From an uncultured bacterium (GTDB lineage: Bacteria > Patescibacteriota > Minisyncoccia > Phycocordibacterales > CAIZLB01), in contig CAINHC010000037.1 in assembly GCA_903848795.1 (NCBI GenBank), positions 1 through 51,878 on the forward strand: a stretch of DNA of 51,878 nt, read 5' to 3'. Positions 4,377-51,878 of this stretch are shown here, piece by piece; within the stretch, counting starts at the first letter, position 1, and the number at the start of each line of letters is the position of its first letter. The notes below the pieces were generated by a model that worked only from the letters and a program-made list of their open reading frames with translations, searched no databases and had not been told where the DNA came from. The translations under genes and the position numbers were made by a program.

Positions 4377-5600
4377 TTACTTCTTCAATATCTTCTTTAG
4401 CTTTCTGTATATTAGTAATGTATATCTATTATACAGCATTTTCTTGATTCGATTTACTAGGTCAAAATATAGCCTTCGGGGTTTGTTGGGGAAGGGGTTT
4501 TGAATAACATCTTTATATATATCAACAATCTTAGATATTTGATTTTTTAACTCGTACATTTCACTGAATCTCTTTTTGGCCTCTGAAGAACGGAATTTGT
4601 AGTACTCCTTATCCTCCATCAGCTTCTTAAGTTCGGCGGCGTAGTCCTCGATTTTATCAAGAACTCTTCCACCCTCACTGATACATTCTATGTGGCCATT
4701 TGCGTAAGATGATGAGTGGCTTACTATGGGTAGTCCGAAATACATCGCTTCCGCAATAGCAGCTGAATTTACTTCGCCATCTTTTCTGCCATGAGAAAAT
4801 ACATCCAATGTTGATACAAAATCATATATATCATCTTGAGTTTCGGCGTATGGTAAAAATATAATATTTTTGATATTTAAATCTTTTGCCTGCTTTTTAT
4901 ACAAGTCACTACCATTCAGCATTAAAAATACTGTGTTCTCATTTTCAATCTTTTTGTATGCATCAAGTGGAATAGGGGAGTAAATCCAGTCATCTTTTCT
5001 TTGATGAAAACCATATATAAATTTATTTTCAATATTCAATTTTTCCCGTAATCCCGCATACTTCTTTCTTGGAATATCAAGAAACGTTGATATAACTTCA
5101 ACTCTACTTGCATCACCACCTTTTTTGACCCATTGGTCTGCTGACCATTTTGAAATATGTAATACTCTAGAAATATTATATTGATTATCAACCCCAGCCA
5201 GTAGATGTAATGAGTCCACTATGGGAGTACTTCTGATTTTTGTAAAAGGATATTCTGGGTAACCGCCTCTGCCTGTTTGAATGATGTCATAATTATTTTC
5301 ATCAAACTTTTCCCAAAAATCTGTACCCACCCAATCATGGGTAGGGGAATTTATATCCTTTGCCTCAATATTAAACTTAATTAAGTTGACTTTACTTCTC
5401 TCCATAAATTGCACACGTTCTGGATCGGTGTTCAGGTGTTTATAATCACTTCCAATATATGGAGCCGAATCGCAATAAAAATAATCAACACTAAAATACT
5501 CAGTTGGTAGATTGACCGCTAAAACTTGAAGAAATTTTTCAGTTCCACCAGCAGATAATCCGCCAAACTTGATAAATGCGATTTTTATTTTTTTGTTCAT
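4377..5600 (-). CDS. Glycosyltransferase family 4 (GT-B)
   Basis: N-terminal GGTEK; C-terminal E-x7-E-type GEVNSAAIAEAMYFGLPIV. Confidence 0.82.
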   Translation of the reverse strand: MNKKIKIAFIKFGGLSAGGTEKFLQVLAVNLPTEYFSVDYFYCDSAPYIGSDYKHLNTDPERVQFMERSKVNLIKFNIEAKDINSPTHDWVGTDFWEKFDENNYDIIQTGRGGYPEYPFTKIRSTPIVDSLHLLAGVDNQYNISRVLHISKWSADQWVKKGGDASRVEVISTFLDIPRKKYAGLREKLNIENKFIYGFHQRKDDWIYSPIPLDAYKKIENENTVFLMLNGSDLYKKQAKDLNIKNIIFLPYAETQDDIYDFVSTLDVFSHGRKDGEVNSAAIAEAMYFGLPIVSHSSSYANGHIECISEGGRVLDKIEDYAAELKKLMEDKEYYKFRSSEAKKRFSEMYELKNQISKIVDIYKDVIQNPFPNKPRRLYFDLVNRIKKMLYNRYTLLIYRKLKKILKK

Positions 5601-7297: not shown

Positions 7298-7867
7298 TTA
7301 TTTTAATATTAAATTAATAATCTCAGATAAATCATTTACTTTGTAATCAGGTGAACTAAGACCTCTCTTTTTGGCTGAATGTTCATTATGTACCTGTATA
7401 GTCTTAATTTTAGCATTTTTTCCACATTCGATATCACTATCTTGATCTCCTATTATCCATGAATTTGTAATATCCAAATCATAATCCTGTATGGCTTTTT
7501 GTATAAAAAATGGTTTTGGTTTGCGACATTCACATGTTCCAGAGTACTCTGGGACAATGCCATTTGGATGATGATAACAATAATAATACTCCTTAATTTT
7601 GATGTCGCAATCCTTCACTTTTTCTCTAAGTATTTCTTGTATTTCCTTTATATTTTCCAAGGTTGTTTTTCCCTTTGCGTAACTTGGTTGATTTGATATT
7701 ACAAAAATGTAGTAGCCTTGATCGTAAAGTTTTTTGATTATGTCAAGGGATCCCGGTATTAATTCGAAATCTTTAGGGTAGTGAGGAGATTCATATTCAT
7801 CTGTTTTTGGATTAAATATTAATTGATTAATCACCCCGTCTCTATCAAAAAAAACTGCTTTGTTCAT
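7298..7867 (-). CDS. gmhB: D-glycero-D-manno-heptose-1,7-bisphosphate phosphatase (HAD)
   Basis: FFDRDGVIN, ISNQ, CYHHP, CECRKP, IGD motifs; heptose gene context. Confidence 0.88.
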   Translation of the reverse strand: MNKAVFFDRDGVINQLIFNPKTDEYESPHYPKDFELIPGSLDIIKKLYDQGYYIFVISNQPSYAKGKTTLENIKEIQEILREKVKDCDIKIKEYYYCYHHPNGIVPEYSGTCECRKPKPFFIQKAIQDYDLDITNSWIIGDQDSDIECGKNAKIKTIQVHNEHSAKKRGLSSPDYKVNDLSEIINLILK

Positions 7868-45931: not shown

Positions 45932-48424
45932 ATGAAATTTAATAATGAAAGCATCCCTGCTGATGCTAATCAAAATCCAAATGAAGACTTAAACCTCCAT
46001 GCCCTTTCTCGTGAGAGAAGTGAACTTAGAAAAGCCTTGCAGGGTCTTGGGGTTAATCCAGTAAAATCAGAACATATTAAGACTGGAAAGAATGAAGAAT
46101 CTTTAATATATACAGAAGGTATTGAAGAAGTTAATCAAAAAATTGGAGATTTTAGTATAGAAAAAGCTGGAGGAATGTCAAAAGCAAAAGAACTTGTGAG
46201 ACAAGACAAAGAAGTTGCTCCTCAGAAAGGTTTTGTAAATGAAATTGCAATAGTGAAAGAAATGGGTCCTATCTATGAAGAAATTGCTGATTCATTTGAG
46301 CAGGTCGAACAATCTAATTTGGTTATTAATAAAAATATTCAACAGATTTCTTTAGAAGAAGACCCATATAAAAGAATGGTCCTAGAAAGAGTTGTAAAAA
46401 AGTTTATAGTTAAAAGAGATGCTTATCAGGAAATATATCAATTAGCTGTTACAAGAGATCCAAAAATTGCCAGAGCGCACACGCTTATAGAATACAAGAA
46501 AGGGCTACATTCAGAAGGTCACATTGCAATGACTCCAAGTGTTGCTAAATACGTTGAAGAAATAGAAAAGAAAATGCGTACCGGAGATCCAATGTTTCTC
46601 CATGGTCCAACTGGTACTGGTAAAACATCTATTGCAAGGCTTGCTGCGGAAGAATTAACCGGAAAAACTGCTGAGATGGTTTACTGTAATCAACAAACAC
46701 GCGAGTCAAATATCTGGGGTAAGACAGGTGTTAAAGGAGACGGCAAAGGAGGGTCTGAGACTTTTGATATATTGGGTCCACTTGCAAGGGCTATAAAAGA
46801 AGGTAAACCAATTATTTTTGATGAATTTAACTCACTTGAAGAGGATCAAATGAGGATCATTAAAGGAGTTTTTGGTTATAAACCAGGAGATGAAGTGCCA
46901 ATCACGGGAAATGGTAAGATAAAAATGGCACAAGGTTTTCAAATAATCTGTACAGCCAATCTTAAATCTGAAAAACATACAGATAGAAGAGATCTACCAG
47001 ATGAAATTAAAAGAGAGTTTGAGCAAAACAATATAGAGGTTAATTATAATCCAAAACATGAAAGTTTTGATATTATGCTTGCCCGACTTATGAATCAAGA
47101 TGGGTCCATTGACCTTTCTTGGCACGATATGAACGTAACTCTCCCAAAATTTTCTGAGGCAATTGAGAGTGTTCAGCAAGCCTATTCTGGAAATTTAAGT
47201 GATGACGAGGCAAAATCAATTGGTGTGATGAATGCTTCAAATGCAAAATCAGAGCTTAAGGGTTTTGTTATGACACAAGGCTCTGTTGAATCAATATTAG
47301 ATCAGTGGAAAATTGAGACAAAAATTGGTAAAGGTAGTAAAACTTTTGCAGAATTTATTGATGAAAGATTAAAAACAGCGTTGACTTTTAAAACATACAG
47401 TCAAGAAGACAGAGTCTTGTCAGCAAAAATATTTGCACTCAAGGGATTTTTAAAAACTGTAACACCAGAAGAAATGTCTCTACCAAAAGATATTTTTAAT
47501 GGAGTTAAAATAAAAGCCGAAAGAGGTGGAGAAGATGAAATTGAAGAATTAAAAGAAAAATCTTCAAAGGTTGTACATATTACTTTGTCTGAAATTGCAG
47601 AACTAGATCCTTTTGCTGTCCGTCCAAATAAAATTGATCCACTAGAAGATTTTTCTGCGGGACATGAGTCAGACGGGGATGACTTTTCAAAGTCATTAGA
47701 AAAAAGATTGGCCAAGATTAGAAAAGGGAAGGAAAAACATGGTAATTCAATATCCACAGAGTATACTCGCACAAATCCAGAAACCAACGCCGTAGAACAC
47801 CAAGAATCCATAACTATAAACATAGAGGAAAAACTTCAAGAATTTATAACACTATATCAAGAAACAAACATAGATACACCGCCAGACTTTGAAGATCAAA
47901 TTAGAGATATTTGGTTAAAGAATAATACTGAAATACAGGAAGCTATTGAGGAAAAAGGTTTTGATGATATCATTATAGCTCCTGCCAATATTCCACTCCC
48001 TGCACTTGCAGAAAAAATGAAGGTGGGCAATGACTACTGGTTAGGAGATGGCTTCAAAAATGGCGGAGGCTTTGCAGGAGCAAATAGTGTGGGCACAGAT
48101 AAGCCACGTATAATTCTTATTCACAAGACTCAAAATTTAGGAGAAAGACCAGAACTTGCTTCAACACGTGGAGTCAAAGCAAAAGACATAAACATAGAAG
48201 AATCACTATCATTGGATGATTACATAATATTTCAAAAACAATATTTTAAAGAAAATGGAAAACACCTTGATGAAAATGGGTGGACATGGACACCTCGTAC
48301 TAAATCTGGCGACCGTTTTGTCTACTCCGGCTGGGGCTCCGATGGCGAGCTGCATGTCGTCGCCAGTGGTGCCGGCGGTTCCAGCTCCCACTTGGGCGTT
48401 CGTCCCTCCCGCTATTTTTATTAA
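45932..48424 (+). CDS. MoxR/AAA_5-type ATPase with C-terminal putative DGR-diversified (CLec-like) domain
   Basis: Walker A GPTGTGKT, Walker B IIFDE, CTAN; C-terminus WTW...LGVRPSRYFY carrying a variable-region cassette. Confidence 0.85.
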   Translation: MKFNNESIPADANQNPNEDLNLHALSRERSELRKALQGLGVNPVKSEHIKTGKNEESLIYTEGIEEVNQKIGDFSIEKAGGMSKAKELVRQDKEVAPQKGFVNEIAIVKEMGPIYEEIADSFEQVEQSNLVINKNIQQISLEEDPYKRMVLERVVKKFIVKRDAYQEIYQLAVTRDPKIARAHTLIEYKKGLHSEGHIAMTPSVAKYVEEIEKKMRTGDPMFLHGPTGTGKTSIARLAAEELTGKTAEMVYCNQQTRESNIWGKTGVKGDGKGGSETFDILGPLARAIKEGKPIIFDEFNSLEEDQMRIIKGVFGYKPGDEVPITGNGKIKMAQGFQIICTANLKSEKHTDRRDLPDEIKREFEQNNIEVNYNPKHESFDIMLARLMNQDGSIDLSWHDMNVTLPKFSEAIESVQQAYSGNLSDDEAKSIGVMNASNAKSELKGFVMTQGSVESILDQWKIETKIGKGSKTFAEFIDERLKTALTFKTYSQEDRVLSAKIFALKGFLKTVTPEEMSLPKDIFNGVKIKAERGGEDEIEELKEKSSKVVHITLSEIAELDPFAVRPNKIDPLEDFSAGHESDGDDFSKSLEKRLAKIRKGKEKHGNSISTEYTRTNPETNAVEHQESITINIEEKLQEFITLYQETNIDTPPDFEDQIRDIWLKNNTEIQEAIEEKGFDDIIIAPANIPLPALAEKMKVGNDYWLGDGFKNGGGFAGANSVGTDKPRIILIHKTQNLGERPELASTRGVKAKDINIEESLSLDDYIIFQKQYFKENGKHLDENGWTWTPRTKSGDRFVYSGWGSDGELHVVASGAGGSSSHLGVRPSRYFY
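47793..47915 (+). repeat. 123-bp direct repeat, copy 1 (start of the shared C-terminal domain)
   Basis: 6 mismatches versus 51054-51176. Confidence 0.9.
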
Positions 48425-48475
48425 TAATAGGTAGCTTGTAGCTTGAGGATTGTATCTTTTTTTGAATTTTGTATT
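48305..48475 (+). repeat. Putative DGR variable region VR1 plus conserved 3' flank
   Basis: 171-bp direct repeat with 51602-51772; 17 coding differences all at codon positions 1/2. Confidence 0.88.
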
Positions 48476-48491
48476 AAATTAACTTTGTATT

Positions 48492-50603
48492 ATGAATGAA
48501 AAACCAATAATTATAGAGACAGCAAAAGATGGAAGGGATAATGAAGAGAAAAAAATTGATGGTATTCTGCTTGAGCCTGAAAATCCACCTACAACTGCTC
48601 CTAAAAAAGAACAAGGAGATAGAGAATTTCAAGAAAAACAACATGAGCAAGCTGTGAATTTTGTTGAGGGCCACAGAAATGTTTTGGAACATTATGCTCG
48701 GGGTGCTATTTCTATAGCTCCATCGCCAAAAGGTTTAAATACATTTGCCTTTGATCTTGAAAAAAATACAATTTACATAAACTCAATGTTCTACAAAGAA
48801 CTTGGTTTGTCAGATGAGCGCACACTTTTTGCCTCAATGCATGAAATAGAACACTTCCTAGAAAAGAAACAAATTCTAGCAGAAAAAGGTGGCTCTATAA
48901 AATTTAAAAAATATTTAGATAGAATTAAAAAATCTAGAGCCTTTGCTTTAACAGATAATTGTGTAGCGGATATACATGTGAACAAGACAGTTATATCAAA
49001 AACAAACGAGAGTTTGGCTGGGGTTGAAAAGGGTATGTATACGGAAGTGCTATTTAAGGAAAGAGATTTTACAGAAGCTCCAAAGCATATTCAATTTGCG
49101 CAAGCCTTGCTTAGAGAATCGAGGGTATCCGACGAAGAATGTGTTGTCGCAGAAGATGTGCGAGAGAAAATGGAAAAAATCAAAAGTATGAAAGGTAAGA
49201 GTGGGTTGTCACTTATTGATGTTATGACATCACCGTCGACAACCATGTCTGATAGATTGGCTCTGCAGGACAAGTTCATAATGCCAATAATTGAGGAATT
49301 AAAAGAAAAAGATATTGAAGAGGAGAAAGAAAAACGTAAACAGAAAAAAGAACAGCAGGAAAAACAAAAGCAAAAATCTGAGAAGGAGAAAGGCGAAGAG
49401 GGTGAGGATATGAAGAATGATGATGAAGGTGGTGATGATAATAAAGATGACCCAACTAAAGGAGATAAAACCAAACCAGAAAAAGGTGGCAAAAATGAAT
49501 CTAAGGGGGAAGGGGATGAAGATCTAAATGAAAACTTTGACCCAAATGAATTTTGGAAAGAATCCTATGATAAGGCAGATAAAACAACACCAAGAGCTGT
49601 ATCACAAGAGGATATAGACAAAGCGATTGAAGAATATGAAAAAGCAACTAAAGCTAAGGTAAAAAGTGAAAAAGAAATACAAGAAGAACTTGATAAGGAA
49701 TACGCAGAAAATATTGGAGTGAAAAAAGAGGATTTGCAACAATATAGAAAATTGGTAAAAGAGTTAGAAAAAGTTGTTAATCCAGAGACAAATAGAAATG
49801 TTATAGAGGAACTTAGGGATCTAATTGCAAAAATTATATCCAAAAGAAAAAAGAAAAAAACAGATCCAAAATATCCAGTGGAAGAAGGTGATGAATTAGT
49901 GGAACCTGGGGAATTGGTTGCTGAGGTTAAGAAAGGTAATTTTACACCAAAAGTTTGGGAGACACATGAGCTCAAAGAAAAAGCTGATAATAAATTTGGA
50001 GAAATAGAGATAACATTTGTTGGCGACAGGTCTACCTCTATGAAGGAAGGTAGAAAACTTACTGAACAGCAAAAATCTATCGTTATGGCAATGGAGGCTT
50101 TAAAAGAGTTTTCGGATATATGTAAAGAAGAGAGAACAAACTTAACTAAACCTCTTGAAATCAAATCTGAAATTTATTCTTTTCAGTCTTCAGAAAAAGA
50201 TGATAAGACACCAATAAAAGCAATGTCTCCTGAACTTAGTGAGGCAGACAGAATAAAAACAGCCTCAAAACTTGCGTCGTGTACTGGGTCAACGATGGAC
50301 TTTGTACCACTTGAAACTATTATGTCTAATTTGGACGAGACTTCCAAGAAAAAAATTCTTGCTGGTGAATTAAAAAAAATTGTAATTATATTTACCGATG
50401 GAGAAAGCGATGACTCAGATAGGGTAATAAAAGTTCTAAAAACACTTAGGGAATCTGGAGTTGTCGCGGTTGGTGTGGGGGTAACGGAATCTGGTAAACA
50501 AACTTTGCTTACTTATGCACCAGACGCAAAACTAGCGGAAACAGCGGATAAATTACCAATTATATTGGGTGAGCTTTTGAAGGAACATCTTTCTGTTGTA
50601 TAG
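48492..50603 (+). CDS. VWA-domain protein with N-terminal HExxH metallopeptidase-like domain and charged linker
   Basis: MHEIEH; K/E/D/G-rich linker; MIDAS DRSTS ... FTDGES, VGVG; directly follows the MoxR-type ATPase. Confidence 0.82.
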   Translation: MNEKPIIIETAKDGRDNEEKKIDGILLEPENPPTTAPKKEQGDREFQEKQHEQAVNFVEGHRNVLEHYARGAISIAPSPKGLNTFAFDLEKNTIYINSMFYKELGLSDERTLFASMHEIEHFLEKKQILAEKGGSIKFKKYLDRIKKSRAFALTDNCVADIHVNKTVISKTNESLAGVEKGMYTEVLFKERDFTEAPKHIQFAQALLRESRVSDEECVVAEDVREKMEKIKSMKGKSGLSLIDVMTSPSTTMSDRLALQDKFIMPIIEELKEKDIEEEKEKRKQKKEQQEKQKQKSEKEKGEEGEDMKNDDEGGDDNKDDPTKGDKTKPEKGGKNESKGEGDEDLNENFDPNEFWKESYDKADKTTPRAVSQEDIDKAIEEYEKATKAKVKSEKEIQEELDKEYAENIGVKKEDLQQYRKLVKELEKVVNPETNRNVIEELRDLIAKIISKRKKKKTDPKYPVEEGDELVEPGELVAEVKKGNFTPKVWETHELKEKADNKFGEIEITFVGDRSTSMKEGRKLTEQQKSIVMAMEALKEFSDICKEERTNLTKPLEIKSEIYSFQSSEKDDKTPIKAMSPELSEADRIKTASKLASCTGSTMDFVPLETIMSNLDETSKKKILAGELKKIVIIFTDGESDDSDRVIKVLKTLRESGVVAVGVGVTESGKQTLLTYAPDAKLAETADKLPIILGELLKEHLSVV

Positions 50604-50683
50604 CAATGGTATGTTAGATTAGTAAACAAGACAGTAGAGTATTACTTTATTATAAATCTTAAAGATGATAATATAAAAACATC

Positions 50684-51721
50684 ATGGAATCACCAATCAT
50701 AGAGATGGCTAAGCCAAAATCACCACAAAAGTCTGAAAACAGATCTGAATTAGAAACAGACCAACAAAAAGCAAAAGAAGCTTACAAAGCTTCTTTTGAC
50801 AAGCTGGATCTTTTTATTGGACGAGACATAGCAAGATATAAAGAACAACTGGCAAGCGGTGACTTTGAAGACAAAGAAGGAGATGAGGAGGGTTCTGGAG
50901 AAAAAAGAAAGGAAGCATTTAGAGTAAAGCTTTTACGTAATATGGATAAGGTAGAGAAAATGCATAAAGTTATAGAAAGTGGAGAAGATATACTCTTAAT
51001 ACAGCCTGAAATCTCTGTAGATTATGTTTATGCTAACCCCACCATGGGCGCCCTAGAACACCAGGAATCCATAACTATAAACATAGAAGAAAAACTTCAA
51101 GAATTTATAACACTATATCAAGAAACAAACATAGATATACCACCAGACTTTGAAGATCAAATCAGAGAGATTTGGTCAAGAAACACCACAGAAATACAAC
51201 AGTCAATAGAGGAGAATGGATTTGATGATATTCTGCTTGTTCCAGCCAACCTTAACCTTGTAGATCTTGCAGAGAAGATGAAGATGGAAAATGGAAATTT
51301 CACTGGTGCCAACTTTGATAACGGAGGAGGCTTTGCTGGAGCAAAGAGTATAGGTATAGACAAACCACGTATTATTCTATATCACAAGAAAACGTTGCCA
51401 GAAATACAAGAGAAGACAGGAATAGACGTTCATTTAGACATCAAGGCGGGTGAAGCTGAAAAGCTATTCAAACAAAACCCTGATCAATACTTAAGTACTC
51501 TTGAAGACTTTATTGTTTTTGAAAGGAAAAATCTTAAAGATTCCAACAAACACTTTTCCAAGTATGCAGAAAACAGTGGAGTTTGGCTATCTGGAACCAA
51601 GTCTGGCGACCGTTGTGTCTACTCCGGCTGGGACTCCGATGGCGGGCTGAGTGTCAACGCCGATGATGCCGACGATTCCGACTTCAGCTTGGGCGTTCGT
51701 CCCTCCCGCTATTTTTATTAA
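50684..51721 (+). CDS. Putative DGR target protein sharing the C-terminal domain of the AAA ATPase
   Basis: EHQESITINIEEKLQEF..., GGGFAGA, DKPRIIL, and the LGVRPSRYFY end shared with 45932..48424. Confidence 0.82.
   Translation: MESPIIEMAKPKSPQKSENRSELETDQQKAKEAYKASFDKLDLFIGRDIARYKEQLASGDFEDKEGDEEGSGEKRKEAFRVKLLRNMDKVEKMHKVIESGEDILLIQPEISVDYVYANPTMGALEHQESITINIEEKLQEFITLYQETNIDIPPDFEDQIREIWSRNTTEIQQSIEENGFDDILLVPANLNLVDLAEKMKMENGNFTGANFDNGGGFAGAKSIGIDKPRIILYHKKTLPEIQEKTGIDVHLDIKAGEAEKLFKQNPDQYLSTLEDFIVFERKNLKDSNKHFSKYAENSGVWLSGTKSGDRCVYSGWDSDGGLSVNADDADDSDFSLGVRPSRYFY
51054..51176 (+). repeat. 123-bp direct repeat, copy 2
   Basis: 6 mismatches versus 47793-47915. Confidence 0.9.
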
Positions 51722-51772
51722 TAATAGGTAGCTTGTAGCTTGGGGATTGTATCTTTTTTTGAATTTTGTATT
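51602..51772 (+). repeat. Putative DGR variable region VR2 plus conserved 3' flank
   Basis: 171-bp direct repeat with 48305-48475. Confidence 0.88.
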
Positions 51773-51878
51773 CTGCATTTTAAATTTTTTCTTTGTATTG
51801 GATTTTGGTGAGTATGGTGGAATTGTTGACGTTGAAGCAACAGATGATTCTAACCTGCCAAAAATTGATTTTAAATTA

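Follow-up and report, generated by a model that had tools for sequence, protein, structure and literature searches.

A Patescibacteria gene cassette combining a CbbQ/NorQ/CobS-like AAA+ ATPase, a VWA partner and two retroelement-diversified target domains

Related systems already described

Target domains of diversity-generating retroelements (DGRs) fused to AAA ATPases have been reported in CPR bacteria, as the first-pass annotation of the present locus had stated (Paul 2017, as cited in the accessible part of PMC10907252), and the 'UVR4/Midasin' targets and B3 architecture (Wu 2018, PMC5758913) are likewise close to this locus. In the accessible portions of these sources, those elements and the one analysed here, which lies in a 51,878-nt stretch of DNA (the window), have in common the order target, template repeat (TR), opposite-strand avd and RT, a C-terminal variable region (VR) on an AAA (midasin-like) ATPase protein, a Patescibacteria host, and cytoplasmic targets without a transmembrane (TM) segment. 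Here, in contrast to them, the RT, avd and TR most likely follow the last of three genes (ORF3) and do not separate the ATPase gene (ORF1, or A) from its VWA partner (ORF2, or V). An HExxH-VWA gene after the RT, a small target with its own N-terminal module, and non-DGR relatives are not described for those elements in the same portions, and the text of Paul 2017 and the supplementary tables of Wu 2018 may cover some of these features.

MoxR-vWA couples with DGR-diversified domains have been published as well, outside CPR, as predicted conflict systems (accessible parts of PMC7159879 and PMC10907252), so neither AAA-fused DGR targets in CPR nor MoxR-vWA-DGR systems elsewhere are new. The VMAP ternary systems of cyanobacteria and gammaproteobacteria, as far as these sources present them (Kaur 2020, PMC7159879; Dore 2024, PMC10907252), resemble the present locus in joining a MoxR-class ATPase, a vWA protein and a DGR-diversified domain in each locus, and cytoplasmic sensing is predicted in both. 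However, their variable domain is usually on the vWA protein, whereas here it is on the ATPase and on a separate small protein; the vWA protein here bears an HExxH domain, and the host is not multicellular. Furthermore, the third VMAP protein carries the effector, whereas no such component was found here, neither among the Pfam matches of ORF1-ORF3 (in a Pfam copy that may not include VMAP models) nor next to them, the neighbours being pheS, pheT and gyrB.

Among AAA+/VWA couples of known function, a finger of the VWA protein passes through the AAA+ pore, with remodelling of the linker (accessible part of PMC13036017), and in CobT a flexible linker connects an N-domain to a VWA domain (bioRxiv 10.64898/2026.10.09.757910, as far as accessible). 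The layout of N-domain, flexible linker and VWA domain with an intact MIDAS is common to ORF2 and the partners in NorQ-NorD, CbbQ-CbbO and CobS-CobT, which, unlike the cassette, serve one fixed client each (NOR, Rubisco and CobN, respectively). To our knowledge, none of these couples has a hypervariable domain or an HExxH motif. Phage 'CobT-like' VWFA proteins are a further group of relatives: with phage proteins that bear the name CobT or VWFA in BFVD, ORF2 aligned structurally over nearly its full length (E 1.9e-10 to 1e-7, 680-865 columns), and its N-domain matched a phage cluster in the Atlas at TM 0.93. The locus in the window is, in contrast, chromosomal, between pheST and gyrB, and we know of no DGR link for the phage proteins.

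Architecture of the three genes and their retroelement

All three genes are present on the plus strand of the window: ORF1 (45932..48424; 830 aa), ORF2 (48492..50603; 703 aa), which starts 67 nt downstream of ORF1, and ORF3 (s; 50684..51721; 345 aa). With pheS and pheT upstream and gyrB beyond the RT, the flanks are housekeeping genes and form no defence island, a setting that speaks against a conflict-system reading.

The first gene encodes, as had been annotated, an AAA_5-like ATPase fused to a VR-bearing domain. Pfam AAA_5 matched aa 221-346 (E 3.8e-13) within an AAA+ module at 46508..47455 (aa 193-508), with Walker A GPTGTGKT at aa 225-232 (46604-46627) and Walker B IIFDE at aa 294-298 (46811-46828), both conserved in every one of the 21 aligned homologues. 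In the structure model (mean pLDDT 76.8) the solved structures closest to the AAA+ core were NorQ and CbbQ2, i.e., MoxR-class members. Walker motifs, fold and the adjacent VWA gene all fit, and ORF1 is a CbbQ/NorQ/CobS-like (MoxR-class) AAA+ ATPase. An assignment to MoxR proper was rejected, no AAA_3 being found among 18 Pfam families, and so was a named NCBIfam equivalog, the best match being GvpN, whose score of 26 bits lies below the cut-off of 267. A low-confidence linker (47627..47740, aa 566-603; pLDDT below 50 at aa 566-583 and 586-603) joins the ATPase body to the class I VR-bearing C-terminal domain (47741..48421, aa 604-830). ORF1 presumably forms a hexamer, in which the flexible linker of each protomer would present a binding domain diversified by the DGR.

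The HEIEH motif, charged linker and MIDAS-bearing VWA domain previously noted in the second protein are all borne out in ORF2, which is a CobT/NorD-type partner whose N-domain is joined by a long flexible linker to a VWA domain with intact MIDAS. Its model (mean pLDDT 76.5) resolves two domains, aa 41-298 and 347-703. The former is a helical HExxH domain (48612..49385) with HEIEH at aa 117-121 (48840-48854), in which H117, E118, H121, D155, N156, D160 and N164 are conserved without exception among 14 aligned homologues. It is followed by a low-complexity, E/K/D-rich linker (49386..49529, aa 299-346; pLDDT below 50), whose alignment columns are E/K/D/G-rich and variable in length, and by the VWA/MIDAS domain with an N-terminal extension (49719..50600, aa 410-703; Pfam VWA on aa 507-673, E 6.1e-8). 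The MIDAS motif is complete (DxSxS at 50025-50039), with D512, S514, S516, T601 and D636 invariant in the same 14 homologues, and the best fold matches were NorD and Rea1, both AAA+-partnered types. For ORF1 and ORF2 NCBIfam provided no equivalog, the sequence level giving Pfam AAA_5 and VWA only. The HExxH domain belonged to no curated family in Pfam, NCBIfam or PADLOC and to no peptidase family in Pfam or NCBIfam; besides the phage cluster, weak leads were Atlas clusters at TM 0.58 (16% CobT) and 0.49 (34% DUF2201_N) and a PDB profile match to MJ1213 (E 0.12). A canonical HExxH is present in four of six distant V homologues and absent in those of loci L077 and L079, and catalysis may thus not be essential.

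ORF3 carries the same VR domain behind a helical N-terminus, in agreement with the annotation: its aa 110-345 (51011..51718) are 57% identical to aa 607-830 of ORF1 (BLASTP E 4e-80). The conserved N-terminal helical module (50684..51010, aa 1-109) holds Q27, Y52, F61, D63 and G72 invariant across 25 sequences and is possibly MIT-like. Its profile matched the VPS4B MIT domain among PDB sequences (E 3.4e-4, over about 35 residues only), with helices 2 and 3 aligning ('...G.K.K......K.....DRAEK.K..L'), and Pfam MIT was found in 11 of 23 members, the best E of 0.0055 falling under the curated cut-off. In contrast to the MIT domains of Vps4, spastin and MITD1, however, the module is joined to a variable binding domain and not to the ATPase, and no MIM-type partner was identified for it. 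ORF3 very probably adds another copy of the binding domain, diversified separately from that of ORF1 and borne on a small helical module that is possibly MIT-like. The suggestion that this gene acts as a swappable adaptor holds in part: the module family is narrow (a search of 1.84 billion proteins gave 45 representatives at E<=0.001) and always N-terminal in full-length proteins of 240-380 aa, and the C-terminal domain must match the single TR.

That TR is a 112-nt repeat on the minus strand of another contig of the same genome (G000:C32:5464-5575); TR, Avd and RT are thus outside the window, and the assembly gives no physical link between them and it. VR1 of ORF1 (48305..48416) differs from the TR at 15 of 112 positions, 14 of them TR adenines, and VR2 of ORF3 (51602..51713) at 12 of 112, nine of them TR adenines (one-sided Fisher, p 4.7e-11 and 2.2e-5, respectively). 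Each of the 23 TR adenines occupies a first or second codon position, and VR1, VR2 or both vary at 19 of them. The hypervariability of both VRs is real and far above chance, and the earlier proposal that the receptors are diversified by retrohoming is supported in that both VR domains are DGR targets; one TR would rewrite 15 codons in each of them. Beside the TR we detected an RT with an intact frame (361 aa; Pfam RVT_1, E 5.7e-20) and an Avd (Pfam bAvd, E 3.9e-15, over the 40-bit cut-off). The RT translation contains LGNITSQ, which we take to fit the DGR-type [ILV]GxxxSQ motif. In L052, the closest related locus, the spacer between the end of the VR and the TR aligns to the tail of the window and then to the head of the reversed C32 (72.6% over 135 nt, E 7e-18). 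This alignment suggests that C32 most likely abuts the 3' end of the window, with the retroelement directly after ORF3.

Each VR is followed by a 59-nt flank that is missing from the TR, at 48417..48475, where it holds the last two codons and the stop codon of ORF1, and as a near-identical copy at 51714..51772. These flanks are a candidate target-marking element, in which no significant DNA hairpin was found (z -0.55 and -0.70). The VR domain itself could not be placed in the C-type lectin fold of DGR variable proteins: it gave no FGE-sulfatase or CLec family in Pfam searches of 23 members and no C-type lectin in a profile search of PDB sequences; that of ORF1 matched no Pfam family, and the nearest named Atlas cluster was DUF5701 (TM 0.66-0.70). 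VR1 and VR2 unitigs did not differ among four lake-water runs from a single study, of which two may stem from the source sample, so no ongoing diversification was seen at the level of contigs, which drop rare variants.

Conservation of the cassette in Patescibacteria

An alignment of ORF2 led to 49 related loci, of which 34 contain an RT, 29 avd, 23 an ORF1 homologue and 22 a small target, usually in the order AAA-target, TR, avd, RT, HExxH-VWA, small target. Among the 40 loci whose upstream sequence reaches at least 1100 nt, 22 have the RT immediately before V, at gaps of -47 to +32 nt; the window differs from these in that no RT stands between A and V. An ORF3 homologue directly follows V in 16 of the 31 loci with at least 900 nt downstream, and adenine-biased TR/VR pairs were found for A and s targets alike (e.g., 15/15, 18/18 and 17/17 mismatches at A). 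Gene order is kept among loci with only 42-58% protein identity and in far more distant ones: A and V are adjacent in all six of the latter (L075-L080), five of which are without an RT, and two carry small paralogues in tandem arrays in place of a DGR.

The AAA-VWA-small-target gene set is therefore a conserved Patescibacteria cassette, and the synteny expected across CPR has been found. Its description as a stand-alone operon was incomplete, since in most relatives RT and avd are inside it and here they most likely come after ORF3. Taken together, it is very probable that ORF1-ORF3 supply the proteins other than RT and Avd in a DGR cassette of the Patescibacteria type that comprises a CbbQ/NorQ/CobS-like motor, a CobT/NorD-type partner and a second target, with the TR, opposite-strand avd and RT on C32. 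The distribution is patchy: the cassette was found in two of 60 close relatives and, in a phylum-wide sample of 400 further genomes, in eight (E<=1e-30).

Possible role and alternative explanations

The best overall explanation, to which we give a probability of about 60%, is a CobST/NorQD-type AAA+/VWA couple with cytoplasmic, DGR-diversified ligand-binding domains. By analogy with NorQD and CobST, the VWA domain of ORF2 would engage the AAA+ pore and ring, ATP hydrolysis would pull or twist the ORF2 linker and so alter the MIDAS face and the state of the HExxH domain, and the VR domains would choose which ligand engages the motor. The unfoldase/protease machine proposed earlier is not supported, since the solved relatives NorQD and CobST remodel the finger and linker of their partner and feed no protease, as far as the accessible parts of the sources go (PMC13036017; bioRxiv 10.64898/2026.10.09.757910). 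The impression that ORF1-ORF3 lack an obvious signal peptide is upheld by a crude hydropathy test rather than a signal-peptide predictor; it found no hydrophobic segment (maximum 19-residue Kyte-Doolittle mean <=1.08).

For such a couple, a role in cytoplasmic recognition or conflict, most plausibly against proteins of phages or other invaders, is at slightly less than even odds; it would parallel the cyanobacterial and gammaproteobacterial MoxR-vWA systems that are coupled to DGRs. Against this role, no known defence family was recovered in PADLOC-DB 2.0: ORF2 was unmatched, ORF1 had only P-loop-level matches (E>=3e-4) and ORF3 one match at E 0.011. More tentatively, and on balance doubtfully, the cassette could be a cytoplasmic 'anticipatory receptor' machine, in which the DGR, transcribed with the partner gene, would continually rewrite the heads on the ATPase and on an MIT-like satellite, invader binding would lead to ATP-driven activation of the HExxH domain, and DGR-less lineages would achieve the same with tandem arrays of paralogous satellites. 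If true, bacteria whose genomes measure about 1 Mb would possess a recognition arm resembling adaptive immunity.

Attachment to hosts is the presumed lifestyle of CPR bacteria, and the variable domains could instead be diversified adhesins or appendage tips of a surface or attachment apparatus that the AAA+/VWA pair assembles or remodels. ORF892 of ATV was among the BFVD matches of ORF2 (E 2.4e-5), and a MoxR/VWA pair is said to act in the extracellular tail development of Acidianus two-tailed virus. Moreover, in the accessible parts of the sources, an archaeal phage-tail assembly system is among the studied MoxR-vWA couples (PMC7159879) and the cellular DGR targets that have been characterised are mostly surface proteins (PMC8144416). 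We nevertheless regard this apparatus as unlikely, given that ORF1-ORF3 have no hydrophobic N-terminus or TM segment by hydropathy, that an ATPase-fused VR domain has to be where ATP is, that the best VWA matches are NorD/Rea1 types and not adhesins, and that the operon is without secretion or pilus genes. Quite improbable, too, is a housekeeping motor that acts as a chaperone or inserts metal and, as NorQD, CbbQO or CobST do, activates one enzyme or loads a cofactor into it, with VRs tuning client binding: its nearest solved structures (NorQ, CbbQ2, NorD) and the CobT-named phage matches point that way, but the patchy distribution is unlike a housekeeping function, no conserved client gene is nearby, hypermutation of a binding site argues for variable and not fixed ligands, and DGR-less relatives carry arrays of divergent paralogues.

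The tight coupling of V to the RT gene in many loci, with gaps that imply co-expression, would also suit a VWA protein, and perhaps an ATPase, serving the DGR itself, for example in cDNA integration or in remodelling of RT/Avd, instead of using the diversified domains. DGRs elsewhere are not known to need an AAA+/VWA pair, most of the distant loci have the A-V pair and no RT, and in the window the RT is not between A and V, all of which makes a retroelement accessory very unlikely. In line with this, the four classes of DGR accessory genes of Wu 2018, in the accessible part, name avd and HRDC and no AAA+/VWA pair. Finally, two DGR target genes flanking an unrelated VWA gene by chance, a reading that no specific finding favours, is hardly credible, as it is contradicted by the gene order conserved at 42-58% identity and farther.

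The two diversified proteins and their retroelement

In the genome analyzed (1.02 Mb, 52 contigs, completeness 98.8%), the window makes up the complete 51,878-base contig C37, and its 3' end carries, downstream of pheS and pheT, three plus-strand ORFs spaced by 67 and 80 nt: ORF1 (45932-48424; 830 aa, Pfam AAA_5 at aa 221-346, E 3.8e-13), ORF2 (48492-50603; 703 aa, Pfam VWA at aa 507-673, E 6.1e-8), and ORF3 (50684-51721; 345 aa), for which the Pfam search returned no match. Nothing specific was gained for the three proteins from NCBIfam and PADLOC, and promoter and terminator scans gave counts at shuffle level (22 vs 19.1 and 2 vs 3.2, respectively). No hydrophobic stretch was found in any of the three, in agreement with the first-pass annotation, where obvious signal peptides were considered absent. 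ORF3 aa 110-345 and ORF1 aa 607-830 share 57% identity (E 4e-80).

The final 112 nt of both shared domains constitute the variable regions VR1 (48305-48416, in ORF1) and VR2 (51602-51713, in ORF3), and a third copy of this repeat, the template repeat (TR), is located on the minus strand of another contig of the genome (C32, 5464-5575), adjoined by an opposite-strand bAvd gene and a 361-aa reverse transcriptase (RT), and then by gyrB. Template adenines account for 14 of the 15 differences between VR1 and TR (p 4.7e-11) and for nine of the 12 between VR2 and TR (p 2.2e-5), so that the two modules, proposed as hypervariable from the sequence alone, proved to be so. All 23 template adenines occupy codon position 1 or 2 (AAC, AAT, GAC or similar codons), and 19 of them vary in at least one VR, over 15 codons. 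Furthermore, VR1 and VR2 are followed by the same 59-nt 3' flank, which TR lacks, and no significant DNA hairpin was detected 3' of the VRs (z -0.55 and -0.70).

The start of TR lies 150 nt inside C32, counted from the contig end, and 157 nt of the window remain after ORF3. The closest relative is L052, whose VR-to-TR spacer aligns with the tail of the window and then with the head of the reversed C32 (135 nt, 72.6%, E 7e-18), which makes A-V-s-TR-avd(-)-RT-gyrB the most likely order in this genome (A, V, and s being the genes of ORF1, ORF2, and ORF3 type), with the assembly split by repeats. In four lake-water metagenome runs from one study (X1-X4), 87-97% of sampled words of window positions 45932-51878 were present in contigs; Logan unitigs ended exactly at VR-type repeats, with breaks at VR, IMH, and shared-block repeats (47828-47876, 48391-48420, 51108-51118, and 51717). 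No VR variation was seen across these runs.

At the start of the shared domain, a block of ~120 nt (47793-47912 and 51054-51173) is at least 95% identical between the ORF1 and ORF3 copies, the middle of the domain reaching 35-60% identity only. The block was rejected as a conserved element, since its equivalent shows only 63-79% identity between the A and s copies of three related loci (L021, L034, and L052); for this reason, its identity in the window looks like recent local gene conversion.

ATPase, VWA partner, and small target

In the structure model of ORF1 (pLDDT 76.8), the AAA+ core spans aa 193-508; it matched NorQ/CbbQ-type structures ahead of dynein, Mdn1, and McrB, with Walker A and Walker B motifs invariant across 21 homologues. 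In the ORF2 model (pLDDT 76.5), a helical N-domain (aa 41-298) is followed by 48 charged residues below pLDDT 50, confirming the linker previously noticed between the HEIEH and VWA parts, and then by a helical region and the VWA domain. All 14 aligned homologues retain the MIDAS residues as well as H117, E118, and H121. Among viral models, phage proteins bearing the names CobT or VWFA aligned with ORF2 along its entire length. Its N-domain matched no curated family, the weak leads being a phage cluster (TM 0.93), a part-CobT cluster (TM 0.58), a part-DUF2201_N cluster (TM 0.49), and MJ1213 (E 0.12); PDB fold searches used the whole ORF1 and ORF2 models, and VWA and AAA domains filled the matches.

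The N-terminal module of ORF3 (~110 aa) defines a narrow family: a search of 1.84 billion proteins yielded 45 representatives at E<=0.001, in which it is always N-terminal; full-length proteins among the matches have 240-380 aa. MIT domains made up most top rows of its profile search, with an E-value of 3.4e-4 against the VPS4B MIT domain over ~35 residues only, and Pfam MIT scored below its cut-off; "MIT-like" is accordingly used here as a lead. Comparison of the module with the ORF1 N-terminus and linker gave hhalign probabilities of 0.3%, 0.2%, and 0.9%, leaving unsupported the "S.EE.LR..L" helix likeness to ORF1 noted by eye. Complex prediction with the ORF2 alignment, Mg, and ORF3 aa 1-125 scored 0.00 in two runs, a result uninformative on binding.

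Two classes of VR-bearing domain occur among related loci, without demonstrable homology to each other by hhalign (probability 1.4%). In the 13 loci with both A and s, the two always belong to the same class (13/13), as would be needed where one TR serves both targets.

A cassette in related and distant loci

The ORF2 family, large and unnamed, gave 326 matches at E<=0.001 when 7999 candidates were scored; their annotations go no further than "VWA domain-containing" or "hypothetical". A survey scanning one genome per species recovered 49 loci, many on short contigs, almost all labelled as Patescibacteria MAGs; the five other labels were one Woesearchaeota, two Gammaproteobacteria, one Bdellovibrionales, and one Eubacteriales. 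A DGR-type RT was present in 34/49 loci, avd in 29/49, an ORF1 homologue in 23/49, and a small target in 22/49. The gene set is thus a conserved cassette, and its commonest order (A, TR, avd(-), RT, V, s) places TR, avd(-), and RT between A and V. RT is missing from that position, as in the window, in four loci (L031, L037, L041, and L047), and another four have the order V, A, avd(-), RT. Where enough flanking sequence was available, RT adjoined V in 22 of 40 loci, at gaps of -47 to +32 nt, and the small target adjoined V in 16 of 31. Moreover, TR/VR pairs with only or nearly only adenine mismatches were found in related loci for both A and s targets.

Two of the related loci deserve separate mention. 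In a same-family genome (L013, G024:C9), the C-domains of A and s are identical in DNA (4380-4560 and 7413-7593); no TR was found in this assembly, and RT appeared only as a fragment on a 2.9-kb contig, denoting either an inactive cassette or assembly collapse. L048 (PXDW01000041.1), a contig of 3.6 kb assigned by binning to a Woesearchaeota (DPANN) archaeon, has avd and RT together with a V homologue showing 46% identity to ORF2, explained either by misbinning or by transfer between bacteria and archaea of ultra-small size.

The family is sporadic, occurring in 2/60 close relatives and in 8/400 other genomes sampled phylum-wide. A and V are adjacent in all six distant loci (L075-L080, with L074 left out as a duplicate of L032), and avd, RT, and a VR-like C-terminus occur together only in L079, from which we infer that the AAA+/VWA couple is the core, with receptor diversity supplied by DGRs or by paralogue arrays. 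Three of the six have a bare A-V pair, and two, without DGR, have tandem arrays of 310-398-aa paralogues beside it: nine in L075 (G146:C2:800-18800; 310-384 aa) and six in L077 (G074:C10:600-18400; 355-398 aa). These paralogues conserve an N-terminal stretch, which we read as a helix, and diverge in their C-domains. WD40-like repeats were observed at the C-terminal end of two L075 paralogues.

Possible role and other retroelements of the genome

The prevailing view of DGR targets is of receptors at the surface or on phage tails. In the present case, an intracellular remodelling motor driven by ATP carries the diversified domain as a fusion, and motor, VWA partner, second receptor, and retroelement form one inherited cassette in many CPR lineages. 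Midasin-like ATPase targets and a B3 architecture were described in CPR (Wu et al., 2018; PMC5758913), as were CPR targets without TM domains (Roux et al., 2021), and the purpose of intracellular hypermutation was raised as a question for CPR DGR targets (PMC8144416). In the literature covered, supplements and Paul et al. (2017) being outside its scope, no account was found of an HExxH-VWA gene as a constant member of the cassette, of a small second target with its own module, or of DGR-free relatives with paralogue arrays.

Our data establish a two-target DGR, a CbbQ/NorQ-like ATPase, a NorD/CobT-like VWA partner with intact MIDAS, and their conserved linkage. By analogy with NorQD (PMC13036017) and CobST (bioRxiv 10.64898/2026.10.09.757910), the VWA domain would sit on the ring with a finger inside the pore, the N-domain may attach to the small AAA subdomain, and the linker would be acted on by ATP hydrolysis. 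More speculatively, the VR domains would catch a ligand, so gating the cycle and switching the HExxH domain. The cassette could then be a cytoplasmic conflict or sensor system, an equally speculative proposal, akin to the MoxR-vWA systems with coupled DGRs that were predicted by Kaur et al. (PMC7159879) and Dore et al. (PMC10907252). A defence role is likewise speculative, and the absence of PADLOC matches, the housekeeping genes at both flanks, and the invariance of the VRs among four runs of one study all speak against it. With its diversified domain on an intracellular motor, the cassette offers a concrete, testable model for the purpose of intracellular hypermutation in minimal-genome organisms, with the non-DGR relatives and their paralogue arrays as a natural comparison between two routes to receptor diversity. 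In addition, a variable site of 15 codons set in an otherwise fixed scaffold may interest protein engineers.

The same genome has at least two further DGR-type RT genes. The C22 gene (3196-4182, L069) is intact; it is accompanied by an avd of its own, encoded on the opposite strand, and by a target that lies upstream and ends in "...WDGGHRWVFLAS". The C2 gene (1828-2796, L067) contains one TGA and one TAA within the match. C48 and C49 have 431-aa frames with weaker RT matches (E about 1e-18), which look like another RT type. C32 also encodes, beyond gyrB (190-1758, L063), a probable surface protein of 522 aa, which combines a hydrophobic segment at its N-terminus with CARDB domains (E 1.1e-14) and long "NCVNGY.NGVYTGC" repeats rich in N and Y.
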